From positions 1-47,069 of the IMG/VR virus record IMGVR_UViG_2778261418_000014: DNA of 47,069 bases, one strand, 5' to 3'. How positions within the stretch are numbered: the stretch's first letter is position 1; each line of letters starts with the position of its first letter. The notes under the pieces are model-generated. The model saw only the letters and a list, made by a program, of their open reading frames with translations, did not search any database and was not told where the DNA came from. Made by a program: the position numbers and the translations under genes. The DNA is from a virus. Taxonomy: Duplodnaviria; Heunggongvirae; Uroviricota; Caudoviricetes. Of this stretch, positions 163-35,320 are shown piece after piece.

Positions 163-510
163 ATGCAGCAAAGAGATACTTACCTTCATGGGGAACAAAG
201 GCAGTTATTTCTTAGCAAGAAGAATCAGTATCTAGCGATAGGAAAGGTTCCTGAAGATATATTCTGGTTGCTAGTGGAGATGTCAGCCATACGCAGTCAA
301 AGCATCATAAAGGCATTGTATGACTATCTTGTTCTTGGTGATTCGAGAAAAGTTATCTGCGAGCGATACAATGTAAATAATGGATATATAAGTACCAGTT
401 TATCTCGTCTGGAACGTATGAATGAAATGATAAAAGAAATTATACCCCACCATGTAAAATGGTATTTGGGCACCAATAATTACTGTGAATGCTGTGCGCG
501 TGCTATATGA
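163..510 (+). CDS. PapB/FaeB-family adhesin-operon transcriptional regulator
   Basis: Track ORF 7..510. ATG at 163 is preceded by GGGAG (151-155) at 7-nt spacing. The segment SIIKALYDYLVLGDSRKVICERYNVNNGYISTSLSRLERM matches the conserved PapB-family core as I recall it (DYLV.G.SRKEVCEKY.MNNGYFSTTL.RL). Start is uncertain (7 and 97 are alternatives). Confidence 0.6.
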   Translation: MQQRDTYLHGEQRQLFLSKKNQYLAIGKVPEDIFWLLVEMSAIRSQSIIKALYDYLVLGDSRKVICERYNVNNGYISTSLSRLERMNEMIKEIIPHHVKWYLGTNNYCECCARAI

Positions 511-815
511 ATCAGAGAAGGACTGTCTATTCATAGATAAAATAATATCTATATAGGCATTTCTGCATGTTATAAAAATTGCACCTATAGCAATTGTGTT
601 GGTAAACTATCTTTTTCGTTTATAAGGAGGCGTTAATAAAAAAGTCGCAACTAGGTGTTAATTTTTTTCACTATGTATCGGTTATGTGGTCTTGATGATA
701 GTGAAAAGTTATGGATAAAGCTGCCATTAAATAATTATACAGATAACAAATTCTCAAAATATTATCTCATTGAGGCTTCAACTGTAGCTGGTGCAGTAAT
801 TTACTGAAGGTATTT

Positions 816-6800: not shown

Positions 6801-8723
6801 AAATCGCTTTCCGGAGAAGGTTCAGTGGGTATACTGAACACCACTGATCTGACGCTTTCCGGGGATAACAGTAATTTCAGCGGTGAATTCCGTGTGCAGA
6901 AAGATGCTGCTCTGCGGGCTTCAGATGAAAAACACCTGGGCACCGGGCTGATTGACAGTGATGGTGTCACCTGGCTTACCGCCAGTGGAAACTGGTTACT
7001 GAAGAATGATATTACTGGCTCCGGCGCTCTGGTGAAACAGGGGGCGGGTAATCTGATCATTAATCATGAGCTGACTTATACCGGTGATACCACGGTTGAA
7101 AATGGCGTTCTGATTGTCGGTGATGATTCAGTCACCCGCGCCGCTGATGCGACGCTATCAGGCTCCGGAAATATTCATGTTCTCAATGGCGGCACACTCA
7201 GTGGGCAGGGTACCGTTGCAGGTCATGTTAATAACCAGGGAACGCTGGCATCACTGAATGCACTTTCAGGCTATGAGAACGCAGAAGTAAGCAATTTTAC
7301 GGTTGGCTCACTGACCAATACCGGCGTCATTCGTCTGGCCGGTGGTAAGACAGGAAATACCCTGACCGTAAATGGCGATTACACCGGTGGCGGTACGTTA
7401 ATTATCAATACCGTGCTGGGGGATGATACCTCTGCCACTGACAAACTGATTGTCACGGGTAACACTTCCGGCGATACCGGCGTGGTGGTGAATAACGTCC
7501 GGGGCCAGGGGGCTCAGACCGCTGACGGCATTGAGATTGTGCATGTCGGTGGTCAGTCTAACGGTAACTTCAGACTGGAGAATCGTGCTGTGGCCGGGGC
7601 ATGGGAATATTTCCTGCATAAAGGTAATGCGGGTGGTACCGACGGTAACTGGTATCTGCGCTCTGAATTGCCGCCGGAGCCGGGGACAAAACCGGAGACA
7701 AAACCGGAGACAAAACCAACACCGGATAAACCTGTGCAGACGGTCTATCGCCCGGAGGCTGGCTCATATATTTCGAACATTGCGGCGGCTAACACGCTGT
7801 TCAACACCAGAATGCACGATCGTGAGGGGGAAACTTACTATACCGACGTGTTTACTGGTGAGAAAAAAGCAACCAGTATGTGGATGCGTCATGTTGGCGG
7901 TCATAATCGCTGGAAGGACAGTAGTTCACAACTGAATACGCAAAGCAACCGCTATGTTGTGCAACTGGGTGGCAGCATTGCACAGTGGACTGACGGTCAG
8001 GAGCGTCTGCAGCTGGGTATTATGGCCGGTTACGGGAATGAGAAGAGCTCCACGACATCCTCGGTTTCGGGATATAAATCTAAAGGCTCGATCAGCGGTT
8101 ACAGTACCGGTTTATACGGAACGTGGCAGCAGAATGACGGCAATGACACCGGGGCTTATGTTGACACCTGGATCCAGTACGGCTGGTTTAATAATACCGT
8201 TAATGGTGAAAAACTGGCGGCGGAGTCCTGGAAATCCCGTGGATTTACCGGTTCAGTGGAAGCAGGTTATACCTTCAAAGCCGGCGAATTTACCGGCAGC
8301 CAGGGAAGCCACTATGACTGGTATATTCAGCCACAGTCCCAGCTTACGTGGATGAATGTAAGAGCCGGCGAACATAAGGAGAAAAACGGCACGAAAGTTC
8401 AGCTTAACGGAGACGGCAATATCCAGAGTCGTCTGGGCGTCAGAACTTACCTGAAAGGTAAGAGTGCGTCTGATGACAATAAGGCGCATCAGTTCGAGCC
8501 TTTTGTGGAGGTTAACTGGATCCATAATACACAGGACTGGAGTGTCAAAATGGATAATACGGTACTCAGTCAGGACGGAGCCACAAATATTGCTGAAGTC
8601 AAAACGGGTGTTCAGGGTAAATTGTCAGACAACCTGAATATCTGGGGCAATGTTGGCGTTCAGGTCGGCGATAAAGGGTACAGTGATGCCCAGGCAATGC
8701 TGGGTATTAAATATACATTTTAA
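816..8723 (+). CDS. Giant type Va autotransporter adhesin (2635 aa)
   Basis: N-terminus MNKIYKVIWNHSTQQWDVVSEL is the extended signal peptide motif typical of autotransporters. The passenger is a long Gly/Thr/Asn-rich beta-helix-like repeat region with PATR-like repeats (GAGDLAIEAAGQVVTLSNGGNNYTGDTLVRSGTLQ; GSGALVKQGAGNLIINHELTYTGDTTVENGVLIV). A pertactin-like autochaperone region and a Pro-rich linker PEPGTKPETKPETKPTPDKP precede a C-terminal beta-barrel-like domain ending KYTF. Confidence 0.85.
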   Translation: MNKIYKVIWNHSTQQWDVVSELTSCRKKCKSTRLGIALSAMVLGGAIAINCNNAMADVILSPDWRPGTNNSGVGAATVSGKTEYITGPNVVQSGGSGLIWMTVEQAILNGYTTGDNLSGLIYVNTGEKTKTITVKDEVTGASQTLQVFDTDSFSQRDAGTGGNENIPGFSGTADFFNATRFVTAENGGTAILNVGSPAIGNFFKNTQLAVADGDGSSVVWNSVNDFYFQPAATMQGGGVTQKIIDSMKYAGTITDWTGKVHHINSLDDLKQYNQYLIKSLEDKTLSYKQYDAEFNKALIVTKHNYNVDMTAGGRIDSTPYKENVGLLAVLHATNKARAILGKTGKLTGVLPAYGNGGGIVATNGGTGVNEGIIDAIGTEMIAYQDSTIVNDGTLYVWDNNDKYALQAEGMVAGSNNSSAINNSVINIRPFKNAFAPEGINTAIVVSNGGMATNNGTINITADASTNDNNGKTRGVNVGAGGSFINSALGNINIGIAEDKTATHSAVGSVAIEVQNGANKVVNEGTILLGTGAQGNYGILAKDAGTVDVVNTGTITIDGHDSDAPALNIGMFANNSTGLKNTGVINVNGLNSAGLQVINGGQIASDGTVNVGGKGISSGFRNYGAWVEGTGSRVDISGEISLTGDGAVGVFAKDGGNLTLSGNGAVVFGGSDQVGFYVYGDGSAIHNTGNSVMDVSTENSTLFRIASGAVYRGGTGASSDLTASGKNSYALVATGRSDTGTASTVTSGGMTINLTGEGATAVLVEGGAQGSIDSSTTINMDNASAIAGIADGNGYDISGNLINPNDKTTLLTAGAQLSSSQDKVTGYIARNGATLENTGNITFTGKNTTGIRVEEGATGTNSGNIIVQDGGVGLLARGSQDSTTINNSGNLVLSGGDNANRTTGVKASGAATTVNMIAGTLELQGQGAIGVEVSEQGTVNLEGTAIPKFAADGSGITDQIAFRIIGDGATINTKVAQGTLLEASGQRSVLFRIEDGAKQTGSLLMQTSGTGSRGIWAAGKGSNVLAEAGSDFQILGAQAQGLYVTGGATATLKQGASVNLVGDGAVVAEVDGNEYALDGSITQTNTGSVITNEADISSPLNNAKGFITRNQGLLINSGNIDFTAGTDNIGVWVDNGRFENTGSRIAVNGVALFVEGAQSQITSTGGNIVAVDGEAAIKLGAGASLNLAGSGLGTIEGQKNAHGILLDTGAVGLVIDGAKINVNAAGAVGHGIENRAEIEGIQLTNTTEINVADGIGVRTSASLAKTNSGTINVDGSGIALAFQKADGSETDNNLDMSDSGGLVINLKGTGGTGIFANTKDGAVVKSGASVNVTQADGGSALVVNNAASEVVQSGNLISASLNHAVVDASKALSFTNKGQIKAASATGTAMAFDDAVNTTVLNDSGAEIQGVVALNGGDNTFTNKGSITGTVSAKDGNNTLLFDDGSILTGEVTAGNGNNNVTLNGKAHVDKITAGTGKNTFTIKGEGATWNQLDGGQGDSDSLIFDNAIHTLDSVVKLRNFEHVGLKNSSLVTLKEALVLTDGGTGPGSVDIESGSELAIIPAVAGNFTFDPLLTGKGTLSAQLDAETSAFEFSHNVGDQFAGTLKLGTSSFALEGLNTSGLTHAMLMSETGNITTVGSGVQQIGGLGFNGGTLIFGSVMPGDTIASNSIETSAAGTLDIRGKGTIQVTMPDEVINDIPAVDTRKNLLEQDDAQTLVTLVNAAGTVTGTGGQLQLVDENGQAISHSQTFDVTQGGEVVAQGNYDYKLLGSSDGIKGDGLYIGYGLKSLDLQGTGDKALVLTPRANAQGLQTDLGAQLTGAGDLAIEAAGQVVTLSNGGNNYTGDTLVRSGTLQMANDNVLGATGNLNVASNAVFRTNGYSQTVGALQTETGAHIQLDSGSVLTVSGTQRQPGDDNGGIIENNVLSGEGTLAVTGSNLTVHGTNIGFTGNASLTQGALVEMNGAQGLGSQGSISFESLNDRLAIDIADGSGVSSNLSKSLSGEGSVGILNTTDLTLSGDNSNFSGEFRVQKDAALRASDEKHLGTGLIDSDGVTWLTASGNWLLKNDITGSGALVKQGAGNLIINHELTYTGDTTVENGVLIVGDDSVTRAADATLSGSGNIHVLNGGTLSGQGTVAGHVNNQGTLASLNALSGYENAEVSNFTVGSLTNTGVIRLAGGKTGNTLTVNGDYTGGGTLIINTVLGDDTSATDKLIVTGNTSGDTGVVVNNVRGQGAQTADGIEIVHVGGQSNGNFRLENRAVAGAWEYFLHKGNAGGTDGNWYLRSELPPEPGTKPETKPETKPTPDKPVQTVYRPEAGSYISNIAAANTLFNTRMHDREGETYYTDVFTGEKKATSMWMRHVGGHNRWKDSSSQLNTQSNRYVVQLGGSIAQWTDGQERLQLGIMAGYGNEKSSTTSSVSGYKSKGSISGYSTGLYGTWQQNDGNDTGAYVDTWIQYGWFNNTVNGEKLAAESWKSRGFTGSVEAGYTFKAGEFTGSQGSHYDWYIQPQSQLTWMNVRAGEHKEKNGTKVQLNGDGNIQSRLGVRTYLKGKSASDDNKAHQFEPFVEVNWIHNTQDWSVKMDNTVLSQDGATNIAEVKTGVQGKLSDNLNIWGNVGVQVGDKGYSDAQAMLGIKYTF
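7685..7718 (+). repeat. Tandem 12-bp repeat (gacaaaaccgga, about 2.8 copies) encoding the PETKPETKP linker of the autotransporter
   Basis: Direct reading: gacaaaaccgga gacaaaaccgga gacaaaacca. Confidence 0.6.
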
Positions 8724-8730
8724 TCACATA

Positions 8731-8755
8731 GTGGCAGGAGGATCCCTCCTGCCAC
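8731..8755 (+). other. Perfect 11-bp stem hairpin between the autotransporter and Skp-like genes
   Basis: gtggcaggagg-atc-cctcctgccac. No U-tract follows, so it is more likely a stabiliser or attenuator than an efficient intrinsic terminator. Confidence 0.4.
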
Positions 8756-8770
8756 ATCCGGGTAGTCATA

Positions 8771-9313
8771 ATGAGTTCTGTAATGAAATTTTCTGTTGCT
8801 AATGCAGTATTGTTGCTGTTGCTGATTGGATTTACTGGTGTTATTTATATGAATAAATCAAAAGAAATTGCAGTTGTTAATATTGATGCTGTTTATAATC
8901 AGTCTTCTGCCGGAGAACTGGCCAGAACGCATCTGAGTGAAGTTAAGATTATTCTTGAAAAGGGATACAAGGATGCGCTAAAAGCATTCGCAGATAACGA
9001 AAATAAAGATGCACTGCTTCTTGATGCCAGACAAAAACTGGAGAGGCAATATGTTATCGAGGAGCACAATGCAAAAATGGTGTTATCCCGTGTAATAGAT
9101 AATGCCATAAATAACTGGAGAAAAGATAACACAGGAAATATTGCTGTGTTGTCTTCAGGTGTTGTGCTTGCACATAACGATTCAGCTGATATCACAAAAG
9201 AAATTATGGCTCTGGTTGAAAAAGAACATCTGGTTTTTAATCAGTTACCTAAAGTGGAAGTGAAAGTTCAGGAGGAGGTGACAAGTAAAGAGGGAACAGA
9301 AGAAGATAAATAA
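8771..9313 (+). CDS. Skp/OmpH-like periplasmic chaperone
   Basis: 180-aa ORF with a hydrophobic N-terminus. KEIAVVNIDAVYNQSSAG and VLAHNDSADITKEIMALV resemble the Skp motifs (KIAIVN...; VAYNSSDVKDITADVLKQV). It lies immediately downstream of the autotransporter. Confidence 0.55.
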   Translation: MSSVMKFSVANAVLLLLLIGFTGVIYMNKSKEIAVVNIDAVYNQSSAGELARTHLSEVKIILEKGYKDALKAFADNENKDALLLDARQKLERQYVIEEHNAKMVLSRVIDNAINNWRKDNTGNIAVLSSGVVLAHNDSADITKEIMALVEKEHLVFNQLPKVEVKVQEEVTSKEGTEEDK

Positions 9314-9351
9314 CCATTAGTTCCCGATAACGTTTGTTGAGGCGATTCACA

Positions 9352-9390
9352 AGCCGGTATCTGTTATCACTCAGATACCGGCTTATTGTT
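9352..9390 (+). terminator. Rho-independent terminator-like hairpin after the Skp-like gene
   Basis: Inverted repeat agccggtatctg / cagataccggct with an 8-nt loop, followed by tattgtt. Confidence 0.45.
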
Positions 9391-9547
9391 GGGGCCGGGT
9401 ATAATCCGGCAACAGCGTCAAATATCAGGAGGAGGAATGCTGGTTAGGTAACTTTATCATCTTCAGTCTCAAATTCTGATAAATGACAGGAATGTGCGGC
9501 ATGCATTACTTAACGTATACCATCTATAGCTAGATGAAAATTTATTT

Positions 9548-9952
9548 TTGATGTGGGGATTGATATATGGAAATGAAAAAAACATTTGCTATATAAAGAG
9601 TGAAATAAAAGAACATGATATTACTGTTCACTTATGGGTATTTGCATCGCTGACAAAAACTGAGTGTGATGTTCTTGAGTTAATAATGAAAGGGTATAGT
9701 TCTACAAAAATATCACACCTCCGGTCTCGTAGTAATAAAACTGTATCGTTACAAAAGAGACATATATACAAAAAACTTGGTGTCCGAAATGATGTTACAT
9801 TCTGGATTGATATTTTTTTGTCACCAGCGATAAGAACAGTTTTTTACCGAAAAGGCGAGGTTATTAACATAGAAAATGAAATTTTCGAAATGTCCGGTGA
9901 TTCATTTAAGCTTTTGAATAAGTCACTGAACACATTACTGGACAAAAAGTGA
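9548..9952 (+). CDS. LuxR-family HTH protein, possibly a truncated regulator
   Basis: LTKTECDVLELIMKGYSSTKISHLRSRSNKTVSLQKRHIYKKLGV is a typical LuxR-type HTH. It sits N-terminally rather than C-terminally, in very AT-rich DNA, so it may be a remnant. Confidence 0.4.
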   Translation: MMWGLIYGNEKNICYIKSEIKEHDITVHLWVFASLTKTECDVLELIMKGYSSTKISHLRSRSNKTVSLQKRHIYKKLGVRNDVTFWIDIFLSPAIRTVFYRKGEVINIENEIFEMSGDSFKLLNKSLNTLLDKK

Positions 9953-10017
9953 GTATTAATAATTACTGCGGTATCAGTTTAAAGACGGGGTAATTAATCT
10001 ACTGGTTATTATATACA

Positions 10018-10048
10018 CGCCGGGTCAGGCCGGCGCGTTCCTTTTTTG
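10018..10048 (+). terminator. Rho-independent terminator
   Basis: acgccgggtcaggccggcg hairpin followed by ttccttttttg. Confidence 0.55.
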
Positions 10049-10271
10049 TATATGGATTTTCTATTTGTGTATAAGACCCATACTTATCACGTGTTTGTGG
10101 ATTAAACCTCTAAAGAGGTTAAGCACTAGCAAGAAGGGCGATGGTGGGCAGCAATGCTGTTTTTGGTGTGATCACTCATGTCATCAATGATGCCCGAAGT
10201 GGGGAATTTGATGATTGTCCGGTTATTTAAGCTGCAAAGGGCTGGTGCTTTATGCCTGTGAGGTTTATAAT

Positions 10272-12786: not shown

Positions 12787-13980
12787 GTGACCTGGGACGA
12801 TCACAAGAAGAATTTTGCTCGCCTGGCGCGAGATGGTGGTTACACCATCGCACAATATGCCGCCGAGTTTAATCTCAACCCAAACACCGCACGTCGTTAT
12901 CTCCGTGCATTCAAAGAAGACACCGGAACAGCGGACAGCCGTAAGCCAAATAAGCCTGTCAGAAAACCACTAAAAAGCATGATCATTGATCACGCTAATG
13001 ATCAACGTGCAGGTGATCACATTGTGGCTGAAATGGCTGAAAAACAAAGAGTTAATGCTGTTGTCAGTGCCGCAGTCGAGAACGCGAAGCGCCAGAATAA
13101 GCGCATAAATGATCGTTCTGATGATCATGACGTGATCACCCGCGCCCACCGGACCTTACGTGATCGCCTGGAACGCGACACCCTGGATGATGATGGTGAA
13201 CGCTTTGAATTCGAAGCTGGCGATTACCTGATAGATAACGTTGAAGCGCGGAAGGCCGCGCGCGCTATGTTGCGTCGGTCCGGGGCCGATGTTCTGGAAA
13301 CCACTCTTCTGGAAAAGTCTCTTTCTCATCTCCTTATGCTGGAGAACGCCAGGGATACGTGTATTCGTCTGGTGCAGGAAATGCGCGATCAGCAAAAAGA
13401 CGATGATGAAGGGACTCCGCCTGAATATCGTATCGCGAGCATGCTAAACAGCTGTTCCGCGCAGATAAGCAGCCTGATCAACACCATTTACAGCATCCGG
13501 AATAACTATCGAAAAGAAAGCCGGGAGGCGGAAAAGCACGCTTTATCTATGGGGCAAGCTGGCATTGTTAAGCTGGCATACGAACGAAAGCGTGAAAATA
13601 ACTGGTCAGTGCTGGAAGCAGCTGAATTCATCGAGGCGCATGGCGGAAAAGTGCCGCCCCTGATGCTGGAGCAAATCAAAGCCGATCTGCGTGCTCCTAA
13701 GACCAATACCGATGATGAGGAAAGGCAAACAGCCGTCGGTGGCCCTTCTCTTGAAGATCTGGACAAAGTTGCGCGAGAACGGGCCGCCAACCGCCGCGCC
13801 GATGCCGCATTGTGGATTGAGCAGCGTAGGGAAGAAATCGCCGATATCGTTGATACAGGCGGTTATGGAGATGTTGATACTGAAGGTGTATCAAACGACC
13901 CATGGCTGGAACAAGACCTGGACGAAGACGAGGAGGAAGATGAAGAAGTTACCCGCAAGCTATACGGGGATGATGATTAA
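12787..13980 (+). CDS. pacA: Terminase small/pac-recognition subunit PacA
   Basis: 397 aa, GTG start with GAAAGGAAG SD, contains the pac site, acidic C-terminus, overlaps pacB at TAATG. Confidence 0.85.
12980..13138. other. pac packaging site
   Basis: Four TGATCA hexamers (12980, 12987, 12999, 13014) and three TGATCG/A hexamers (13110, 13122, 13133) flank a roughly 90-bp core. This is the P1 pac architecture with Dam GATC sites. Confidence 0.85.
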
Positions 13981-15464
13981 TGGCCAGAAGTTGCGTAACG
14001 GATCCACGTTGGCGCGAGCTGGTGGCGCTATATCGTTATGACTGGATTGCTGCCGCTGATGTTTTGTTCGGCAAAACACCTACCTGGCAGCAGGATCTGA
14101 TTATTGAGTCTGTGCAGGAACAGGGTAGCAAGACATCTGTTTCGTCTGGTCACGGTACCGGGAAATCAGACATGACTTCTATCATGATCATGTTGTTCAT
14201 AATCATGTATCCCGGTGCCCGCGCCATTATCGTTGCGAACAAAATTCAGCAGGTAATGACCGGTATATTCAAGTACATCAAGATAAACTGGGCTACTGCC
14301 ACCAGCCGTTTTCCATGGCTTGCTGATTATTTTGTTCTGACAGAAACCGCTTTCTATGAGGTTACTGGTAAAGGTGTATGGACTGTAGTACCGAAGGGCT
14401 TTCGTCTGGGAAGTGAAGAAGCTCTCGCCGGTGAACACGCAGATCATCTTCTGTATATTATCGATGAAGCCTCCGGTGTCAGTGATAGAGCTTTCGGTAT
14501 CATCACCGGTGCTCTTACCGGACAGGATAACCGCATCTTATTACTGTCACAGCCTACACGCCCAAGCGGCTATTTCTACGATACTCACCATAAACTGGCC
14601 AAGCGTCCTGGTAACCCTGATGGCGTTTATACGGCGATCACGCTTAACAGTGAGGAATCACCGCTGGTAACTCCAGCATTTATCAAAATGAAGCTGGCGG
14701 AGTACGGCGGGCGTGATAACCCTATGTACATGATTAAGGTACGCGGACTATTCCCTAAATCACAGGATGGCTTCCTTCTTGGACGTGATGAGGTTGAACG
14801 TGCGACGCGGCGGAAAGTCAAGATTGCCAAAGGATGGGGCTGGCTTGCATGTGTGGACGTTGCTGGTGGTACAGGACGGGATAAGTCCGTTATCAATATC
14901 ATGATGGTGTCCGGCCAGCGAAATAAACGCCGTGTAATCAACTATCGAATGCTGGAATACACAGACGTTACAGAAACGCAGCTTGCCGCCAAAATTTTCG
15001 CAGAATGTAATCCTGAGCGATTCCCCAATATCACCATAGCGATAGACGGCGATGGCCTGGGTAAAGCAACGGCGGATCTGATGTACGAGTATTATGGTAT
15101 TACCGTACAGCGTATACGCTGGGGTAAAAAGATGCATAGCCGTGAAGATAAGAGCCTGTACTTTGATAAACGTGCTTATGCCAATGTTCAAGCCGCAGAG
15201 GCCGTAAAATCTGGTCGTATGAGACTGGATAAGGGTAATGAAACTATTGAGGAAGCGTCGAAAATCCCTGTAGGGATTAACTCCGCAGGTCAATGGAAGG
15301 TGATGAGTAAGGAGGATATGAAGAAAAAACTCAACCTGCACTCACCAGACCATTGGGATACATATTGTTTCGCTATGCTGGCGGATTATGTTCCCCAGGA
15401 TGAAGTGCTTAGCGTCGAAGACGAAGCGCAGGTTGATGAAGCTCTGGCATGGCTTAATGAATGA
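13980..15464 (+). CDS. pacB: Terminase large subunit PacB
   Basis: 494 aa; Walker A-like GHGTGKSD and a nuclease-like acidic region; follows pacA. Confidence 0.85.
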
Positions 15465-15467
15465 ACA

Positions 15468-15484
15468 TTTGCTCTAATGAATTG
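15468..15484 (+). promoter_or_regulatory. C1 operator-like site at the head of the icd/ant module
   Basis: TTTGCTCTAATGAATTG matches the consensus ATTGCTCTAATAAATTT at 14 of 17 positions. It overlaps the pacB stop. Confidence 0.5.
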
Positions 15485-15649
15485 TGTTTTTTAACTACCG
15501 ATGTTACATTGAACCTGACCTCTTGCGCCTTGAGGCATTTTCGGTTTATGCTTATCAGGCACCTCATTAAAACGGGTGCCGGGATTGGCCTCCCGCTTAA
15601 GTCTAAGGCGATACAGACGCCGCTCGCGTCTTTTTTTGTATCGGCGTAC

Positions 15650-15730
15650 ACGCACACCTCTACAATGGTGGGCTGTATGGGGCTACCTTCGGGTAGGCTG
15701 GTTACCTTGGACGCCAGTAAGGCCAACTCC
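15650..15730 (+). ncRNA. Candidate c4-like antisense RNA (boundaries approximate)
   Basis: A stable UUCG-loop hairpin (15681-15698) is followed by CCTTGGACG (15705-15713). That segment is complementary, with one G-U wobble, to GTCTAAGG at 15601-15608 and to CGTCTAAGG at 15783-15791, which overlaps the SD of the icd-like gene. This mirrors the P1 c4 b'/b1/b2 arrangement. Confidence 0.35.
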
Positions 15731-15802
15731 GTACAGTCCACCGCCAGCAAGATTGGTCTCTTCTGCGGTGGTTACATACCAACGTCTAAGGAGGCTGCCA
15801 AT

Positions 15803-16024
15803 ATGGCTACTATCCCTACCCCAACTCATCCTGAATTTATCTGGCGCTTTTACTCCTGCCAAAAACGTCACTATCACTTCGTTATTGCACCAACAGAAGA
15901 TGAGGCCCGCTCTCAGCTTCCTGACGCCCCATGTATTTTCTCTGCCCGTTTTTCCACTGATTCACGCAATTCTCTCAGTTACTGGTGCCTCCCTGTTAAC
16001 GCTTCTGCTCAGGAGGGACTATGA
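15803..16024 (+). CDS. icd: Icd-like cell-division inhibitor (73 aa)
   Basis: TAAGGAGG SD 8 nt upstream. FIWRFYSC...HFVIAPTEDEARSQLPDAPCIFSARF fits the Icd-like pattern as I recall it. The stop overlaps the ant start (ATGA). Confidence 0.55.
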   Translation: MATIPTPTHPEFIWRFYSCQKRHYHFVIAPTEDEARSQLPDAPCIFSARFSTDSRNSLSYWCLPVNASAQEGL

Positions 16025-17139
16025 GAACATCGTTAGTTACCCGTGAAGAGATGATCGAGGCAATTGAACAGCACACTGCCTGTATCAGTACCAGGGATAT
16101 ACCAGGCGTTATTGCCAACTACTTCATGATCACCAAACAACTTTACCGGAGAAAGGACAAGAACGCGGTTCACCGTATCCTGTTGTCTGATATCCGCGAA
16201 TACCTGCTCGAACAGGGTCATCTGAATTACGCAACCGTCGCAGCCGAAGCACGCAAGGAGGCACACAGAATGAAAGCAACTAACGTTAAATCAGAAAAAA
16301 TTCATGCACCTTCAGTTCAGGAATCGGAGCTGGTGGTTGTTCAGAATCAGTCTGATGAAATTCCCGTTCTGGAATGGCAGGGAGTGCGTGTAGTGACAAC
16401 CGAGACTCTTGCTAGAGGGTATGGGACAGAAACAATCCGTATTCGCCAAAATCATCATGAGAACAAAGTACGCTTTGTTGAAGGGAAGCACTTTTTCAAA
16501 GTTGAAGGAGAATCATTGCGCGAGTTGAAGCACAGAGTAGCTTTAAACTACTCTGTAAAAATTGCTCGCAATGTTCGCTCACTCACCCTCTGGACAGAAC
16601 GCGGCGCAGCCCGCCACGCTAAAATGCTCGAAACCGATCAGGCATGGGCATTCTTTGAAAAACTGGAAGACAGCTACTTCCGGCAAAAAGAACAGCAACC
16701 GGTTGCAATCCCCCAAACATTACCAGAAGCCCTACGCCTGGCTGCCGAACTGGCTGAACAAAAGCAGCTTCTGGAACAGAAAGCCCACCAGCTAAATCAG
16801 CAGCTGGTGGCCGCCGCTCCTAAGGTCGATTTTGCCGACCGGGTATCAGTAGCTAAAGGGATCCTGATTGGGAATTTTGCAAAGGTTGTTGGACTTAAGC
16901 AAAACGCGCTGTTTGTCTGGTTACGGGAGAACGGCATCCTGATAGCGTCCGGTGGACGTAAAAATGTGCCGTTCCAGCAGTACATCAACGCGGGGTATTT
17001 CACGGTGAAAGAAGTGGTGCTGGATGATGAAGATGGCTACCAGATACGGTTGACGCCTCAATTAACGGGTAAAGGCCAGCAGTGGTTGACGCGTAAACTG
17101 CTCGATGCTGGCTTGTTAAAACCGGTGGCGGCTGAATAA
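16021..17139 (+). CDS. ant: Antirepressor Ant1 (372 aa) with in-frame internal start for Ant2 at 16270 (289 aa)
   Basis: Two in-frame ATGs each have a strong SD (AGGAGGG before 16021; AAGGAGG before 16270), as described for P1 ant1/ant2. ORF6N/Bro-N-like and KilAC-like antirepressor regions are present (LEWQGVRVVTTETLARGYG; DFADRVSVAKGILIGNFAKVVGLKQNALFVWLRENG). Confidence 0.65.
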   Translation: MRTSLVTREEMIEAIEQHTACISTRDIPGVIANYFMITKQLYRRKDKNAVHRILLSDIREYLLEQGHLNYATVAAEARKEAHRMKATNVKSEKIHAPSVQESELVVVQNQSDEIPVLEWQGVRVVTTETLARGYGTETIRIRQNHHENKVRFVEGKHFFKVEGESLRELKHRVALNYSVKIARNVRSLTLWTERGAARHAKMLETDQAWAFFEKLEDSYFRQKEQQPVAIPQTLPEALRLAAELAEQKQLLEQKAHQLNQQLVAAAPKVDFADRVSVAKGILIGNFAKVVGLKQNALFVWLRENGILIASGGRKNVPFQQYINAGYFTVKEVVLDDEDGYQIRLTPQLTGKGQQWLTRKLLDAGLLKPVAAE

Positions 17140-17146
17140 TGGAAGA

Positions 17147-17168
17147 ATGCCCGGTTGATGCCGGGCAT
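17147..17168. terminator. Bidirectional terminator hairpin between convergent ant and c1
   Basis: atgcccgg-ttgatg-ccgggcat followed by aatttatt. Confidence 0.5.
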
Positions 17169-17171
17169 AAT

Positions 17172-18023
17172 TTATTGCGCGCTTTCGGGGTTGTCGTTTA
17201 CTGGCTGCCCCTTCTTGGTTTTACGGCTGCGCGTAACTGATGCGGCTGACTTAACCTTTTTCTCTTCGCGAGTGATGGCAATTTGTTTTTTTACATTTTC
17301 AATATCTGCCAGGCGATATATTTTTGCTTGCGGCCAGCGGTCGCAGATGATCGGTTCTATGGAGTCATAAAGGCTAAATTTTGCTTTTTCGAATTCACCG
17401 TTGATGATAATTCCATCACGGAGAGTTTCATCGCAGATAAACACGCCACACAGTGGCACATGGTAACTAACTGATTTACCATCATTGTAGTTAGGGCTAC
17501 TGGAAATGTAGTGGACGCGCAGCATTGTTTCGCTAAAGCCGTGTACGCGCATACGGAATTTTTCATCCTCCGGGTACTGCTTCATTAGCTCTTTTGTTGC
17601 TTCCAGGTTCTCTATGTATTTCGCACTGTGCTCATTGATCCCCGCGCTTTTTTGGATGCGAATGTCCTTATCAATCAGATGAATAATGCGGCCAGCGGTC
17701 ATGTTGACGCTGTTCACAGCCTCTGTCTGATAAGTTGTAACCTTACGCACACCGCGAAGGATGTTAGGCACTGGATATAAAATAGTCTTTGGGATATTGA
17801 GGTCTGGGTACTGTTCCAGTTCCCGCGCCATTAAAGTCCATTTATCAATTTCAGCCTGAATGCTGTCAGTTTCTTTGAACGGTAGAACGACAACCGGGCG
17901 TACAGGACGACCGTCGCTGGCTGTATCAACGTGTTGGGCGCGTGCAACAGCTTTTTTTAGAAAGAGATCCCTGAAGCTGACGAACTCCTGGTACAGTTGT
18001 TCGCCGTAGACATAATTTATCAT
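17172..18023 (-). CDS. c1: C1 master repressor
   Basis: 283 aa beginning MINYVYGEQLYQEFVSFRDLFLKK, recognised as P1 C1 from memory. Confidence 0.9.
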   Translation of the reverse strand: MINYVYGEQLYQEFVSFRDLFLKKAVARAQHVDTASDGRPVRPVVVLPFKETDSIQAEIDKWTLMARELEQYPDLNIPKTILYPVPNILRGVRKVTTYQTEAVNSVNMTAGRIIHLIDKDIRIQKSAGINEHSAKYIENLEATKELMKQYPEDEKFRMRVHGFSETMLRVHYISSSPNYNDGKSVSYHVPLCGVFICDETLRDGIIINGEFEKAKFSLYDSIEPIICDRWPQAKIYRLADIENVKKQIAITREEKKVKSAASVTRSRKTKKGQPVNDNPESAQ

Positions 18024-19176: not shown

Positions 19177-20208
19177 ATGTCCAATTTACTGACCGTACAC
19201 CAAAATTTGCCTGCATTACCGGTCGATGCAACGAGTGATGAGGTTCGCAAGAACCTGATGGACATGTTCAGGGATCGCCAGGCGTTTTCTGAGCATACCT
19301 GGAAAATGCTTCTGTCCGTTTGCCGGTCGTGGGCGGCATGGTGCAAGTTGAATAACCGGAAATGGTTTCCCGCAGAACCTGAAGATGTTCGCGATTATCT
19401 TCTATATCTTCAGGCGCGCGGTCTGGCAGTAAAAACTATCCAGCAACATTTGGGCCAGCTAAATATGCTTCATCGTCGGTCCGGGCTGCCACGACCAAGT
19501 GACAGCAATGCTGTTTCACTGGTCATGCGACGGATCCGAAAAGAAAACGTTGATGCCGGTGAGCGTGCAAAACAGGCATTGGCGTTCGAACGCACTGATT
19601 TCGACCAGGTTCGTTCACTCATGGAAAATAGCGATCGCTGCCAGGATATACGTAATCTGGCATTTCTTGGGATTGCTTATAATACCCTGCTACGTATAGC
19701 AGAAATTGCCAGGATCAGGGTTAAAGATATCTCACGTACTGACGGTGGGAGAATGTTAATCCATATTGGCAGAACGAAAACGCTGGTTAGCGCCGCAGGT
19801 GTAGAGAAGGCACTTAGCCTGGGGGTAACTAAACTGGTCGAGCGATGGATTTCTGTCTCTGGTGTAGCTGATGATCCTAATAACTACCTGTTTTGCCGGG
19901 TCAGAAAAAATGGTGTTGCCGCGCCATCTGCCACCAGCCAGCTATCAACTCGCGCCCTGGAAGGGATTTTTGAAGCAACTCATCGATTGATTTACGGCGC
20001 TAAGGATGACTCTGGTCAGAGATACCTGGCCTGGTCTGGACACAGTGCCCGTGTCGGAGCCGCGCGAGATATGGCCCGCGCTGGAGTTTCAATACCGGAG
20101 ATCATGCAAGCTGGTGGCTGGACCAATGTAAATATTGTCATGAACTATATCCGTAACCTGGATAGTGAAACAGGGGCAATGGTGCGCCTGCTGGAAGATG
20201 GCGATTAG
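19177..20208 (+). CDS. cre: Cre site-specific tyrosine recombinase
   Basis: 343 aa beginning MSNLLTVHQNLPALPVDATSDEVRKNLMDMFRDRQAFSEHTWKMLLSVCRSWAAWCKLNNRKWFPAEPEDVRDYLLYLQARGLAVKTIQQHLGQLNMLHRRSGLPRPSDSNAVSLVMRRIRKENVDAGERAKQALAFERTDFDQVRSLMENSDRCQDIRNLAFLGIAYNTLLRIAEIARIRVKDISRTDGGRMLIHIGRTKTLVSTAGVEKALSLGVTKLVERWISVSGVADDPNNYLFCRVRKNGVAAPSATSQLSTRALEGIFEATHRLIYGAKDDSGQRYLAWSGHSARVGAARDMARAGVSIPEIMQAGGWTNVNIVMNYIRNLDSETGAMVRLLEDGD in P1. The ORF here is essentially identical to that as far as I can recall, and ends ...AWSGHSARVGAARDMARAGVSIPEIMQAGGWTNVNIVMNYIRNLDSETGAMVRLLEDGD. Confidence 0.97.
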   Translation: MSNLLTVHQNLPALPVDATSDEVRKNLMDMFRDRQAFSEHTWKMLLSVCRSWAAWCKLNNRKWFPAEPEDVRDYLLYLQARGLAVKTIQQHLGQLNMLHRRSGLPRPSDSNAVSLVMRRIRKENVDAGERAKQALAFERTDFDQVRSLMENSDRCQDIRNLAFLGIAYNTLLRIAEIARIRVKDISRTDGGRMLIHIGRTKTLVSAAGVEKALSLGVTKLVERWISVSGVADDPNNYLFCRVRKNGVAAPSATSQLSTRALEGIFEATHRLIYGAKDDSGQRYLAWSGHSARVGAARDMARAGVSIPEIMQAGGWTNVNIVMNYIRNLDSETGAMVRLLEDGD

Positions 20209-20258: not shown

Positions 20259-20570
20259 ATGAGAAAGGATTTCAACATCGACGGAAAATATGTAGTGCTG
20301 TCTGTAAGCACTAATATTCTGTCACCATCTGTCATTGTCACCGTAAAGTTGAGCGATAGGATGCCTGATATCGACTCGATATCTGTTGCGTTCCCCGTTA
20401 AAAGCATGCGGAGTGCTGAACATTTTGTGATGAATGCAACGGAGGAGGAAGCGCGGCGCGGGCTTACTAGAGTGATGGGGGAATTTGGCGAACTCCTGGG
20501 TAAGGTAAACAATGCCCTTTCAATCAGTTCAGCAAGGTCCAAAGCGTTAACAGCTTCCATGATGAAATAA
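20259..20570 (+). CDS. cra: Cra-like protein (cre-associated)
   Basis: 103-aa ORF at the P1 cra position, downstream of a C1 operator. Confidence 0.55.
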   Translation: MRKDFNIDGKYVVLSVSTNILSPSVIVTVKLSDRMPDIDSISVAFPVKSMRSAEHFVMNATEEEARRGLTRVMGEFGELLGKVNNALSISSARSKALTASMMK

Positions 20571-20575
20571 AAAAA

Positions 20576-20596
20576 AGCCTGGCAAGGAGCCAGGCT
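20576..20596 (-). terminator. Hairpin with the U-tract on the minus strand
   Basis: agcctggc-aagga-gccaggct preceded on the plus strand by an A-run. It would terminate leftward transcription entering cra/cre. Confidence 0.3.
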
Positions 20597-20702
20597 GCAC
20601 AAAAGAGCGGGTTTGTATTCCGCATCCAATCAATCAAGAAGGAGTATAGCACACAGGTACTGAAGTGAAAAAATGTGATTCGCGATAAACAAAATATCTG
20701 CC

Positions 20703-20719
20703 ATTGCTCTAATTGATTG
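20703..20719 (+). promoter_or_regulatory. C1 operator overlapping the ref promoter
   Basis: ATTGCTCTAATTGATTG followed by a TATAAT -10 box at 20721-20726. Confidence 0.65.
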
Positions 20720-20786
20720 CTATAATTTAGCCGCAGTTTTTGTCAACTACGAAGACGTTGCCATTACTTCACTCCTTGACATCATT

Positions 20787-20812
20787 GGCGGCCATTAGGC
20801 CGCCTTTTTTTT
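20787..20812 (+). terminator. Intrinsic-terminator-like leader hairpin 6 nt upstream of the ref start codon
   Basis: ggcggcc-atta-ggccgcc followed by T8. Confidence 0.5.
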
Positions 20813-20817
20813 GCCAT

Positions 20818-21378
20818 ATGAAAACAATCGAACAAAAACTTGAACAGCGCCGCGAGTGGCAGAAGGCAGCCAGAGAACGAGCGATCGCTCGGCAACGGGA
20901 AAAGTTGGCTGACCCCGCCTGGCGAGAATCGCAATATCAGAAAATGCGGGATTCTATCGACCGCCGTATCGCTAAACAGAAAGAGCGCCCACCAGCCAGC
21001 AAAACGCGGAAAAGTGCGGTAAAAATAAAATCTCGTGGCTTGAAGGGGCGAACACCGACGGCGGAGGAACGGACCATCGCCAATGCTCTTGGCACTCTCC
21101 CCTGCATTGCCTGCTACATGCATGGAGTAATATCTGAAGAGGTGTCTCTGCACCATATCTCCGGTCGTACCGCGCCGGGTTGTCACAAAAAGCAATTGCC
21201 CCTTTGCAGATGGCACCACCAGCATGCAGCACCGGCTGAAGTAAGAGAAAAATACCCTTGGCTGGTCCCTGTTCATGCAGATGGCGTGGTAGGAGGCAAG
21301 AAAGAATTCACCTTGTTGAACAAGTCAGAGATGGAGTTGCTGGCTGACGCCTATGAAATGGCAAACATCATGCACTAA
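20818..21378 (+). CDS. ref: Ref, recombination enhancement function (HNH endonuclease)
   Basis: 186 aa from MKTIEQKLEQRREWQKAARERA, with a Cys/His-rich HNH-like C-terminus (CIACYMHGV...HHISGRTAPGCHKKQLPLCRWHHQHAAP). The track ORF begins earlier at TTG 20740. Confidence 0.85.
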   Translation: MKTIEQKLEQRREWQKAARERAIARQREKLADPAWRESQYQKMRDSIDRRIAKQKERPPASKTRKSAVKIKSRGLKGRTPTAEERTIANALGTLPCIACYMHGVISEEVSLHHISGRTAPGCHKKQLPLCRWHHQHAAPAEVREKYPWLVPVHADGVVGGKKEFTLLNKSEMELLADAYEMANIMH

Positions 21379-21406
21379 TAAATATATTATTTTTAATCTT
21401 AAATGA

Positions 21407-21431
21407 TTGACAACTGACAAGTGACTTGAGT
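21407..21431 (+). promoter_or_regulatory. Promoter-like element with conserved ACAAGTGACT motif upstream of mat
   Basis: TTGACA (21407-21412) followed by ACAAGTGACTTGAGT. The same 10-mer recurs upstream of prt, and a shorter ACAAGTGA version upstream of lyz. Confidence 0.35.
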
Positions 21432-21566
21432 CAGAATCATCACACGCCCGGTACGGATGGATCCCTTTTCAAATATTCCATGGACGGCACAGTCTGAGTA
21501 CCGGGCGCTACCTTCAGTTGTATTGCTAAGCCGCCGCTGGTGGCTTTTCTTTTTTGTAGGGGCGCT

Positions 21567-22208
21567 ATGGATAAGAAAATATGCGTTGTTTCAATGAGCG
21601 TCGGCAAACCGGCGTCAATGACTGCTGCATGGATCAACAATGAGCTGATAATGGCTGAGCGGACCAGCTACCCTGAACGCCGCCGCGATATGGAACTCCA
21701 GCTGCTGCGCGAATTGCGAGAAAAAGAGGAAAAGGGTTTTATCGTGCTGGTGGAAGAGGAAAACAGCTTTATTACCGGTCGAGTTGGCCAGCGTGTAAGG
21801 TTGCGTGATCCCTTCATGAACGGCAGACCGGTACTGATTGAAGCAATGCAGATTTACAAGGAATTGGAACGCCAGAAAGCGATCAAGTTACCGCGCAAGG
21901 AATCCGGCAAATACATCCTTCACCAAAGCATCTTCGATTCCGAACACGATAAAAAAGGCGATGAATTTTTCAACATCAACTGGAGCGAAATAACGACAGA
22001 ACATGTTCTGACGTTACTATGTTGCTTTGCGACGGAATACAACAACGTTGCCAGCGCCGACTACATCAGGGCAATGGCTGGAGAAGTTGAGGCCCATCAG
22101 GAACCATCATTACTAAGTCCCCTGATTAACATAATTCGCGGAACTCAAACACTAACGCAAAAACAAGTGCCGCAAGGAGAATTAACAGGTAAACAGAACT
22201 ATTTATAA
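21567..22208 (+). CDS. mat: Mat-like maturation control protein
   Basis: ORF at the P1 mat position. ATG at 21567 with GTAGGGG SD (track ORF starts at 21540). Confidence 0.55.
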   Translation: MDKKICVVSMSVGKPASMTAAWINNELIMAERTSYPERRRDMELQLLRELREKEEKGFIVLVEEENSFITGRVGQRVRLRDPFMNGRPVLIEAMQIYKELERQKAIKLPRKESGKYILHQSIFDSEHDKKGDEFFNINWSEITTEHVLTLLCCFATEYNNVASADYIRAMAGEVEAHQEPSLLSPLINIIRGTQTLTQKQVPQGELTGKQNYL

Positions 22209-22228
22209 TAGTTACGTTAGGTAACATT

Positions 22229-22255
22229 ATGGGTATGTTTCATTTTCATACCCAT
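22229..22255 (+). terminator. Hairpin after mat
   Basis: atgggtatg-tttcatttt-catacccat followed by tgatttct. Confidence 0.4.
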
Positions 22256-22283
22256 TGATTTCTAGCTTGATTTGTTATTATAT
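22255..22283 (+). promoter_or_regulatory. Sigma70-like promoter for the toxSAS-like gene
   Basis: TTGATT (22255-22260), 17-bp spacer, TTATAT (22278-22283). Confidence 0.4.
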
Positions 22284-22320
22284 GTAACAACACATTAATC
22301 ATTTGAACTGGATGTTAGTA

Positions 22321-23442
22321 ATGGGCAGTGAAGTATATCAAAGCCAAAAATGCGAACTTAAATATTCGAAATCTCAAATAGAAAAAGCAGCCAGAAAAAT
22401 TAGACATGGTTGTGAGGGCGCAGAGCGAGAAGAAGCAATTAAAATGATTCAAAATTTCCGCGAGCTTCATTTATATCCATTGATGCTAATGAAAAATCAT
22501 CTTGATAGGGCTGCAAAAAAAGTTGATAAAGAGAATAAGATTATTGTTGCAAGACGCCTAAAAAGACTTAGCACAATAATTGATAAACTGGAGCGTCCAA
22601 GTCTTGACGGCGGCGCAACAAATAATGCAATAGCCCTTACTAGAATGCAGGATATTGGCGGATGTAGAGCTATAGTTAGAAACATCGAACAACTAAAGAA
22701 ACTAAAAGACCGACTAGTTAAAAGTCGCTCCAAGCATAAAATCTTAAAGGAATATGACTATTTAACTCCAAAGCCAAGCGGATATAGTGGCATTCACCTT
22801 GCATATAGTTGTTTTGATGAAGAAAACGGTAACAATCCGTGGAGTAAAACTAAAATCGAAGTACAACTAAGAACAGAACTCCAACATGCTTGGGCAACAA
22901 GTCTGGAGATAATAGATACACTTGAAAATATTAAGCTGAAAACTTCTAATGAAGGTCACCCTGAGTGGAGAAGATTTTTTTATCTTTCTGGATGCCTAGT
23001 TGCTCATGATGAAGGTGCCTGTATTCTTGATGATGAAACCATCAAAAATTATCAAACAGAGCTTAAAACATTGGAGGAGGCTTTATCTGTTCGCTCAAAA
23101 TTAAGTACATATACATTTGCAATGAAGCTGACATCAGATGCAAACCTAAAGAAAAGCCTGCCCAAAAACCATAATGGATTCTTTTTGGTGAGGATGAGAA
23201 ACGCCATAACAAAAAATGGCAAGGATACTGGAAAGTTTCTTGTTTCTGTGAAACCTTTTAGGAAAAAAGAATCGGAACAAGCCCTCCAGGAACTTAATAA
23301 GGATGATGCGGATCCTGAAGTATTAATTGCGGTGCTGCTTGCCACTAACAACATTAAATCTCTTAAAAAGGCTTATCCTAACTATTTTGGGTCAACAAAT
23401 CAGTTCGGGAGATTCCTTAGCAGACACATTGATACTGTGTAA
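22321..23442 (+). CDS. RelA/SpoT-family small alarmone synthetase-like toxin with C-terminal extension (CapRel-type fused toxin-antitoxin candidate)
   Basis: 373 codons from ATG 22321 (track ORF from TTG 22303). Synthetase-fold motifs are MQDIGGCRAIV, PSGYSGIHLAY and EVQLRTELQHAWATSLE, followed by a roughly 170-aa Lys-rich C-terminal domain. The gene is AT-rich relative to its flanks and sits where P1 carries res/mod. Confidence 0.7.
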   Translation: MGSEVYQSQKCELKYSKSQIEKAARKIRHGCEGAEREEAIKMIQNFRELHLYPLMLMKNHLDRAAKKVDKENKIIVARRLKRLSTIIDKLERPSLDGGATNNAIALTRMQDIGGCRAIVRNIEQLKKLKDRLVKSRSKHKILKEYDYLTPKPSGYSGIHLAYSCFDEENGNNPWSKTKIEVQLRTELQHAWATSLEIIDTLENIKLKTSNEGHPEWRRFFYLSGCLVAHDEGACILDDETIKNYQTELKTLEEALSVRSKLSTYTFAMKLTSDANLKKSLPKNHNGFFLVRMRNAITKNGKDTGKFLVSVKPFRKKESEQALQELNKDDADPEVLIAVLLATNNIKSLKKAYPNYFGSTNQFGRFLSRHIDTV

Positions 23443-23446
23443 ATTC

Positions 23447-23471
23447 CTATGCCTGGCTTAGCCAGGCATAG
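23447..23471. terminator. Bidirectional terminator hairpin between the convergent toxSAS-like gene and lxc
   Basis: ctatgcctggc-tta-gccaggcatag. Confidence 0.5.
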
Positions 23472-23479
23472 CCAAAGAT

Positions 23480-35270: not shown

Positions 35271-35320
35271 GAGGGCTGAAAGTTGCTCGATTACTTAAAA
35301 ATAACTTTACCTAATTGGTG

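Follow-up and report, generated by a model that had tools for sequence, protein, structure and literature searches.

The DNA studied here is a stretch of 47,069 nucleotides from the IMG/VR virus record IMGVR_UViG_2778261418_000014 (the whole stretch is called the window below), and it is part of a P1-like phage-plasmid. Between pacB and the c1 repressor gene, the window bears an insert of about 1.7 kb in which a C1-operator-like 17-mer is followed by an isrK-type leader with its terminator, a C4 RNA, icd and ant. Very probably, this insert is a complete and functional second immunity cassette of the immI type, acquired in the pacB-c1 spacer. This reading is carried by the parts of the cassette and their order, by the RNA pairings together with their covariation, by the orthogonality to the canonical immI, and by the conservation of the open reading frames (ORFs).

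With the curated gathering thresholds of Rfam (50 bits for RF01394, isrK, and 45 bits for RF01695, C4), exactly two RNAs were found in the 47-kb window, and both lie inside the insert. The first is a leader composed of hairpin 1, hairpin 2 with the recognition element a1 in its loop, a single-stranded b1, and an intrinsic terminator. The second is a C4 RNA, in which a 17-bp outer stem encloses a UUCG hairpin 1, a second hairpin and an unpaired a' element; its single-sequence minimum free energy (MFE) structure (-41.6 kcal/mol, z = -3.5) equals the Rfam fold. The structured UUCG region that the initial annotation of this DNA had taken for a C4-like antisense RNA is thus hairpin 1 of the RF01695 match. 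The P1-type leader c4-a1b1 (RF03163) gave no match at its gathering threshold in the window; it does match in P1, in the canonical locus of the plasmid pQ502 and in Gifsy-1. Judged by these matches, the leader is of the isrK/P4 seqA type and not of the P1 c4-a1b1 type. The RNA elements, including those in the icd 5' untranslated region (UTR), are as follows.

15559-15636, plus strand: isrK-type leader small RNA (RF01394, 60.8 bits, full length 1-77)
15585-15591, plus strand: a1, UUGGCCU, in the loop of leader hairpin 2
15601-15608, plus strand: b1, GUCUAAGG, single-stranded in the leader
15615-15636, plus strand: intrinsic terminator of the leader (Rfam model and terminator scan)
15661-15748, plus strand: C4 antisense RNA (RF01695, 75.9 bits)
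15705-15713, plus strand: b', CCUUGGAC(G), in the loop of the second C4 hairpin
15720-15726, plus strand: a', AGGCCAA, unpaired between hairpin 2 and the outer stem
15753-15759, plus strand: a2, UUGGUCU, in the icd 5'UTR
15783-15791, plus strand: b2, (C)GUCUAAGG, overlapping the icd Shine-Dalgarno sequence AAGGAGG at 15788-15794

The C4 elements find their partners on both sides of the RNA. The b' element is complementary to GUCUAAGG, which occurs once in the leader and once across the icd ribosome-binding site (the pairing includes one G-U), and the a' core GGCCAA pairs with UUGGCC in the leader and with UUGGUC downstream. The loop of the second C4 hairpin at 15705-15713 reads CCTTGGACG, and the 47 kb contain just two copies of GTCTAAGG, one on either side of C4 and both on the plus strand (15601-15608 and 15784-15791). 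The initial annotation had proposed that the 9-nt segment at 15705-15713 is complementary to two sites, the second of which overlaps the icd Shine-Dalgarno sequence; both sites were located, the C4 fold was obtained by MFE, and the pairing to both targets was borne out. All items of its feature list are present. It had, however, overlooked that the first GTCTAAGG copy lies inside a terminator-bearing isrK-type leader, and it had missed the second recognition element, a', with its partners a1 and a2.

These contacts are supported by covariation. We collected 80 related loci from IMG/VR and aligned 26 distinct isrK-type leader-C4-UTR sequences, among which there are five specificity alleles. At a, the alleles carry GGCC/GGUC, GGAAC or GAGAC, and at b they carry GUCUAAGG, GCAAAAGG or GUCAAAGG; the b' loop of the L022 allele is CCUUUUGC. 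In the 26 sequences, the a1:a' and b1:b' contacts are 99.7% paired and the a':a2 and b':b2 contacts 100% paired, with 7 of 15 pairs changed on both sides in each set. The observed covariation score was reached by 0 of 500 column shuffles, and sliding the 3' partners by 1-3 columns lowered the pairing to 25-56% (25-54% for the a':a2 and b':b2 set). Pairing is likewise complete (100%) in the three helices of C4, where 9 of the 27 pairs change on both sides. In every allele, b2 overlaps the Shine-Dalgarno sequence. For cognate duplexes, the energies are about -9 kcal/mol at a and -12 to -14 kcal/mol at b (-8.6 and -13.9 kcal/mol at a2 and b2 of the window), whereas non-cognate ones mostly range from -1 to -8 kcal/mol, with one slot pair reaching -10.0 kcal/mol.

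The canonical P1-type cassettes in the same collection comprise five b' and two a' variants, each matching its own b2 or a2, and leader-C4 units in other Enterobacterales follow the same pairing code. When contigs were scanned for a 17-base leader pattern, most matches were chance ones in unrelated phyla; only about 20 were real loci in Enterobacterales or related bacteria, with no Salmonella among those retained. In about half of the collected loci the hairpin-1 loop is GAAA or AAAA rather than UUCG. One locus, L085, looks recombinant when compared with L086: a1 in its leader reads UUGGAAC, but both a' of its C4 and its a2 belong to the GAGAC type, so that a1 and a' no longer match. This locus accounts for the non-standard cell and for the one G-U cell in the a1:a' helix.

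The same segment could be taken for a protein-coding one. The Prokaryotic Genome Annotation Pipeline (PGAP) annotates the isrK leader and C4 as an 'ash family protein', in many cases a pseudogene (15461-15800 in the window, 1797-2114 in the related locus L209), Pfam PF10554 (Phage_ASH) matches the translation of 15563-15799 with 31 bits, and the frame that starts at the ATGs inside C4 (15665 and 15677) runs on into icd here, with no strong ribosome-binding site seen. In other alleles, however, the frame from the C4 ATG stops before b2, after 39 codons; the variation consists of compensatory double changes and does not follow codon rules; and two curated Rfam families match the segment. For orf45, moreover, the nucleotide sequence is conserved and the amino-acid sequence is not, as relayed by PMC12197685. 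That 15461-15800 encodes an Ash protein instead of regulatory RNAs is thus highly improbable, and such a gene was rejected because the variation follows base pairing. The 'Ash' protein family may in large part be a model of the translated sequence of an RNA region whose structure is conserved.

The cassette in the pacB-c1 slot does not replace the canonical one. The plasmid pQ502 (NZ_CP127257), which is 100% identical to the window over 15400-17250, also carries the canonical c4-icd-ant-kilA-repL about 50 kb from the slot cassette, with its own C4 (70.8 bits) and a c4-a1b1 leader. The canonical b' (CGUAAGUG) and a' (UGCUAA) of pQ502 show no pairing with the slot-cassette sites, and between the slot cassette and the canonical C4 with its targets we obtained only -1.7 to -6.1 kcal/mol. 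Having a/b specificities unlike each other, the two cassettes are orthogonal. A second match was present in nearly all top PLSDB plasmids, consistent with a canonical ant. As judged from such relatives, since the canonical region lies beyond the window, the slot cassette is an additional and not a relocated immI. The initial annotation was therefore right in placing an immI-type switch between pacB and c1, while its view of a switch at a different location gives way to that of an extra copy; a relocated immI was rejected, as relatives carry both loci.

Other arrangements of the same parts were also found. An isrK-type leader and C4 precede icd-ant-kilA at the canonical position in four loci (L022, L028, L085, L086). 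A third immI-type site, with a canonical-type c4 and a slot-type icd-ant, occurs in L040, L054, L062 and L070 (about 2160-3870), where it adjoins sequence matching window 20493-22208; one contig (IMGVR_UViG_648276648_000009) bears both this third site and the pacB-c1 slot cassette. The third site probably corresponds to the 'RD-1' of PMC6906374. By the evidence of these arrangements, the cassette parts are shuffled among loci. Beside the canonical repL region of pQ502 (L005, 36131-36305) there is a sok antitoxin RNA of the hok/sok type (RF01794, 94.7 bits). Window segments 1-10145, 22080-23479 and 35271-37358 are missing from this otherwise close relative, and the first 10 kb of the window match a region of a plasmid (NZ_CP127299) for which a type III restriction-modification system is annotated.

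In the junction alignment, the homology to P1 breaks off at window 15466 and restarts at 17158, so that about 1.7 kb replaces about 10 bp of a P1-type pacB-c1 spacer. In P1 itself, only 24 bp, at 93.2 kb, separate the pacB stop from the c1 stop, and immI lies at 48.1-49.7 kb, followed by kilA-repL; the P1 map given in the initial annotation is thus correct. P1 and P7 both have an empty junction, and for this reason the ordinary P1 arrangement was rejected. The cassette is flanked by pacB and c1, not by sim on one side and kilA-repL on the other as immI is; it has no kilA-repL, is convergent with c1 and ends at a hairpin before c1, just as had been described at the outset. The local gene order is lpa, pacA, pacB, cassette, c1, coi, cre, with the following features.

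13980-15464, plus strand: pacB, stop codon TGA at 15462-15464
15803-16024, plus strand: icd, 73 amino acids, 80% identical to P1 Icd
16021-16024, plus strand: ATGA overlap of icd and ant, read from the sequence
16021-17139, plus strand: ant (Ant1), 372 amino acids, 56% identical to P1 Ant1
16270, plus strand: nested Ant2 start ATG, with AAGGAGG upstream at 16255-16261; Met84 aligns with P1 Ant2
17147-17168: GC-rich hairpin between the convergent ant and c1 (terminator scan; fold -18 kcal/mol, z = -4.4)
17172-18023, minus strand: c1 repressor gene (ORF list, homologous P1 annotation and RCS47 annotation)
19177-20208: cre (ORF list and RCS47 comparison)

The right half of the 17147-17168 hairpin is the point where the P1 homology resumes (17158). 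The product of c1 is presumably both the target of Ant and the regulator of the cassette operator, and one may speculate that the adjacency couples the cassette to c1 in regulation; a strong hairpin stands between the two convergent genes.

The protein-coding part of the cassette is well preserved. Icd matches NCBIfam phage_ICD_like (49.8 bits) and phrog_1426, and Ant, a match to phrog_63 (anti-repressor Ant), contains Pfam domains ORF6N (residues 116-202) and ANT/KilAC (260-361). The icd of 73 amino acids with its ATGA overlap was found in 65 of 66 places, in 54 of which ant is intact (340-372 amino acids). The icd-like ORF of 73 amino acids, the antirepressor ORF joined to it by ATGA and the two starts at 16021 and 16270 are all present as first described, except that icd begins at ATG 15803 and not at 15804. 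The ATGA overlap suggests translational coupling of icd and ant. In one relative (L010, about 2470-2500), sequence corresponding to window position 14567, within pacB, runs straight into position 15779, which lies immediately upstream of b2 and of the icd Shine-Dalgarno sequence; the deletion removes the operator, the leader and C4 and leaves icd-ant (372 amino acids) intact, so that this copy would be an unregulated ant.

The loss of the leader and C4 in L010, together with the frameshifted or truncated ant of several relatives, might mean that the cassette is a decaying, non-functional hitch-hiker of recombination. We consider this very unlikely, for most copies keep an intact icd-ATGA-ant, the RNA contacts are held by compensatory change, and the cassette is present in 268 PLSDB plasmids.

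The domain structure of Ant raises the question of its target. The first 95 and the last 145 residues are clearly P1 Ant1-like. The ORF6N centre, however, is absent from P1 Ant, and the central region (residues about 100-230) is unrelated to the P1 one and 60-68% identical to antirepressors of phages converting to Shiga toxin (Stx) production, which also have the isrK-C4 unit upstream of their Rha/antirepressor genes. Ant could then serve as a cross-induction weapon, acting not on P1 C1 but on the repressor of some other element resident in the cell, a lambdoid or Stx prophage for example. Since both P1-like ends and the nesting of Ant2 are kept, and since the cassette has a C1 operator and adjoins c1, we regard such a role as unlikely; C1 remains the more plausible target.

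The operator in question begins three bases past the pacB stop. As the initial annotation had noted, a C1-operator-like 17-mer follows pacB; it agrees with the P1 consensus at 14 of 17 positions, and relatives keep it at the same place, mostly as TTTGCTCTAATAAATTG (15/17). The window contains 8 C1-operator-like sites with at most 3 mismatches vs. 0.23 expected, and 0 of 100 shuffles reached 8. The seven others lie at 12161, 18118, 18582, 18665, 20703, 30896 and 34746, and several of them fit places expected from P1, namely upstream of lpa and around c1/coi/cre. The geometry of the site at 15468-15484 is that of P1 Oc4, which overlaps the -35 element of P2c4. By consensus match, position and geometry, this site is predicted to act as a C1 operator. 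The elements upstream of the leader are as follows.

15468-15484, plus strand: C1-operator-like 17-mer, TTTGCTCTAATGAATTG, 14/17 to the P1 C1-operator consensus, counterpart of P1 Op51/Oc4
15482-15510, plus strand: candidate P51a-like promoter overlapped by the operator; -35 TTGTGT at 15482-15487, 17-nt spacer, extended -10 TGtTACATT at 15502-15510
15523-15552, plus strand: candidate second, P51b-like promoter; -35 TTGCGC at 15523-15528, 18-nt spacer, -10 TATGCT at 15547-15552

The P51a-like candidate is collinear with the annotated P1 P2c4 (TTTGTA ... TGcTATCTT) and conserved in relatives. The P51b-like block is invariant in 26 relatives, and its placement fits the 5' end of the isrK model; this promoter would start an RNA near G15559. 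Collinearity with P1 and conservation thus argue for both candidate tandem promoters; statements on the control of P51a and P51b follow the P1 GenBank annotation.

Taken together, these data allow us to propose how the cassette works, in a scheme whose promoters, C4 processing, block of translation and action of Ant on C1 are conjectural. Transcription would start from the two tandem promoters, the upstream one overlapping the C1 operator. The transcript would either end at the leader terminator, yielding an IsrK-like short RNA, or continue into C4, icd and ant, and C4 would be excised from the read-through transcript; in P1, RNase P makes the 5' cut of C4. The b' and a' elements of C4 would then pair with b2 and a2 in the icd 5'UTR, thereby masking the icd ribosome-binding site. 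As translation of ant would depend on that of icd via ATGA, no Ant1/Ant2 should be made in the lysogen. Ant would be made when C4 is absent, for instance, when the phage enters a cell without a matching C4, and perhaps also when an excess of a1/b1 leader RNA titrates C4, for instance, after loss of C1 opens the promoter. Ant would then most probably inactivate C1. Two orthogonal cassettes together would constitute a two-key immunity type.

Several observations weigh against this scheme. The a2 and b contacts of the window each include a G-U pair. In the predicted (RNAfold) MFE structure of the unprocessed transcript 15559-15815, a'/b' are tied to a1/b1 in cis and the icd ribosome-binding site is largely open, so that repression would depend on processing or on C4 in trans. 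In its central third, Ant has an ORF6N domain whose nearest counterparts are in Stx-phage antirepressors and not in P1 Ant, hence its target could differ from that of P1. In some relatives ant is broken, so that the cassette is dispensable. The operator has 3 mismatches, one of them (G at position 12) lineage-specific, and a generic sigma-70 scan upstream of the leader called neither of the proposed promoters.

The cis pairing of a1/b1 with a'/b' leads to another explanation, modelled on Gifsy-1, where this pairing (a1:a') was described as 'helix b-I / structure A' (PMC4825925). According to it, the main logic would not be that of a superinfection-immunity device. The short leader would be the regulator, binding C4 in the long read-through transcript and thereby opening the ribosome-binding site downstream, and C4 would serve mainly as a lock in cis; the leader would accumulate under particular conditions and trigger Ant synthesis and prophage induction. 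This explanation overlaps with the scheme above and differs in which RNA carries the signal. The Gifsy-1 locus (NC_010392, 34076-34316, minus strand) scores 79.3 bits with isrK and 69 bits with C4 (RF01695) and has a2 and b2, the latter (AUCACCG) overlapping the anrP Shine-Dalgarno sequence. The layout isrK-C4-a2-b2/Shine-Dalgarno is thus common to both, our leader matches isrK and not c4-a1b1, and it has a terminator of its own. IsrK in trans activates Gifsy-1 anrP 100-fold or more (PMC4825925), which supports a short leader RNA switching on antirepressor translation in trans. The compensatory Gifsy-1 mutants G28A/C162U and G31A/C159U (PMC4825925), when their coordinates were mapped onto the sequence, fell exactly on the a1:a' helix, thus directly supporting the a1:a' contact in this type of leader. 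Nevertheless, the module keeps icd, the nested ant1/ant2 and the C1 operator, like P1 immI, and the C4 of P1 and P7 acts in trans and sets heteroimmunity (PMC12197685, PMC8546580). Moreover, many orthogonal a/b alleles are what selection on a trans-acting immunity specificity would predict. We therefore hold the leader-as-regulator explanation to be possible, though clearly the less probable one.

A further alternative is control of the P4 type, in which C4 would act on the nascent a1/b1 and a2/b2 and cause early termination at the leader terminator and/or within icd; immunity control in P4 proceeds by premature transcription termination. The RNA segment is 85-89% identical to that of integrative P4-like satellites (whose genes include those for an integrase, an Icd-like protein and a primase), the terminator directly follows b1, and P4 seqA has been cited as a structural homologue of IsrK (PMC4825925). 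However, b2 lies over the Shine-Dalgarno sequence in every allele, pointing to translational control, and the terminator scan showed no terminator-like site between C4 and icd. What lies downstream here is icd and ant and not the replication/primase operon of P4 immunity. For P1, Biere et al. (1992) reportedly regarded termination as secondary to the translational block. A P4-type control thus seems rather doubtful, and the translational block by C4 remains our preferred reading.

The arrangement is common and has already been recorded. In PLSDB, 268 plasmids have a filled pacB-c1 junction and 314 have an empty, P1-type one, i.e., the insert is present in roughly 46% of the records with an intact junction, with no correction for redundancy. 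The exact a'/b' segment of the window allele occurs in 132 of 5426 complete E. coli genomes, with 129 of 134 places on plasmids. The insert is found at the same junction in RCS47, pTZ20_1P, vB_EcoM-673R5 and JL22, with 88.6-98.7% identity in phage records and up to 100% in plasmids. The RCS47 record (2014) annotates ant at this junction, RefSeq names Icd-like and KilAC antirepressor genes at the insert, and Venturini (2019) mentions that ant and two short hypothetical ORFs lie between pacB and c1, as they do in RCS47 (PMC6906374). In the parts consulted, the RCS47-type phage records and PMC6906374 name only the protein genes of the insert, and our literature search, within the library available, found no description of its RNA parts, its specificity alleles or its orthogonality to immI. 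The insert is a real and probably functional member of the C4/icd/ant immunity family.

The practical interest of the cassette lies in the fact that P1-like phage-plasmids are frequent carriers of extended-spectrum beta-lactamase (ESBL) and mcr genes in E. coli and Salmonella, and that immunity specificity decides which of them co-exist, exclude or induce one another. That about half of them possess an orthogonal second cassette, for which no fewer than five alleles exist at this slot, implies many more immunity types than the classical P1 and P7, and the a'/b' loops provide a simple sequence read-out for immunity typing. The finding does not change a paradigm, since the parts and the principle are already known; its specialist value lies in the diversity of alleles and in the link between P1 immI, P4 immunity and Gifsy-1 IsrK, which are usually treated apart.

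A broader idea, which we put forward only tentatively, is that two orthogonal C4/Ant cassettes, in some cases three, serve P1-like phage-plasmids as a combinatorial barcode of immunity, and that the pacB-c1 slot is a hot spot swapping alleles with P4-like satellites and Stx phages. If this were true, the C4 RNAs, together with IsrK-like leaders acting as decoys, would link the elements in a network that decides which co-resident or incoming ones are silenced or induced, P1-like plasmids carrying antimicrobial resistance among them. IsrK would then be best read as an anti-antisense decoy for C4 RNA, and the Gifsy-1 'orf45' and the Pfam 'Ash' would largely reflect C4 RNA.

As to known systems, the RNA segment is more similar to its counterparts in Gifsy-1 (isrK-C4-anrP), in P4-like satellites and in Stx phages than to the P1 leader. 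Its closest relatives, the P4-like satellites of E. coli next to rph/yicC, with the nucleotide identity given above, share the a specificity UUGGCC/GGCCAA and the layout leader-C4-a2-b2 followed by an Icd-like gene. They differ in having other b specificities, a primase downstream in place of ant, and a chromosomal, integrase-borne location. In two such E. coli loci (L087, 6001-6270; L088, 6001-6232), the leader-C4 has a window-like a and different b loops. Partial cross-recognition between the satellites and the window C4 is conceivable from these sequences.

Stx-converting lambdoid phages have isrK-C4 upstream of their Rha/antirepressor genes with about 79% identity over the leader and C4, and their antirepressors contain the ORF6N domains closest to that of the slot Ant; two records (LC710660, LC710661) annotate 'C4 antisense RNA' and 'isrK'. 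Unlike the slot cassette, they are lambdoid genomes with neither the icd-ant1/ant2 nesting nor a C1 operator.

The Gifsy-1 isrK-orf45-anrP region shares with the cassette the isrK leader with a terminator, a C4-family RNA, a2, and b2 over the Shine-Dalgarno sequence of the antirepressor gene. The isrK and c4-a1b1 models of Rfam match the same Gifsy-1 leader, and the two families appear to model the same element there. The orf45 AUGs, at nt 107 and 119, coincide with the pair of AUGs at the C4 5' end, whose counterparts here are at 15665 and 15677. We infer from the sequence that Gifsy-1 orf45 is the C4 region; the paper itself speaks of STnc1160 and P4 seqA/CI (PMC4825925). In contrast to the slot cassette, Gifsy-1 lacks icd, and what b2 directly covers there is the ribosome-binding site of anrP. 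Its antirepressor is a different, small protein, a C1 operator is missing, the a/b sequences are others, and the locus is flanked by antQ and isrJ. Rfam found no isrJ in the window, and antQ/isrJ do not flank the insert.

As a whole, the cassette resembles the immI of P1 and P7, and its parts follow each other in the same order. In both, a C1-type operator overlaps the first promoter, the C4 RNA has the same fold, and each of its two recognition elements has one target on either side of it, with b2 lying across the ribosome-binding site of icd. The Icd proteins are 80% identical and the KilAC C-termini about 90%, and both systems have the ATGA coupling and the nesting of Ant1/Ant2. The spacing of the sites is also similar, 16 nt (14 nt in P1) between a1 and b1 and 31 nt (29 nt in P1) between a2 and b2. 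However, immI lies elsewhere, with kilA-repL after it, and has a c4-a1b1 leader, whereas the leader of the slot cassette is an isrK match with a terminator directly after b1. Unlike P1 immI, the slot cassette has another a/b specificity and an Ant with an ORF6N centre, and it co-exists with the canonical immI.

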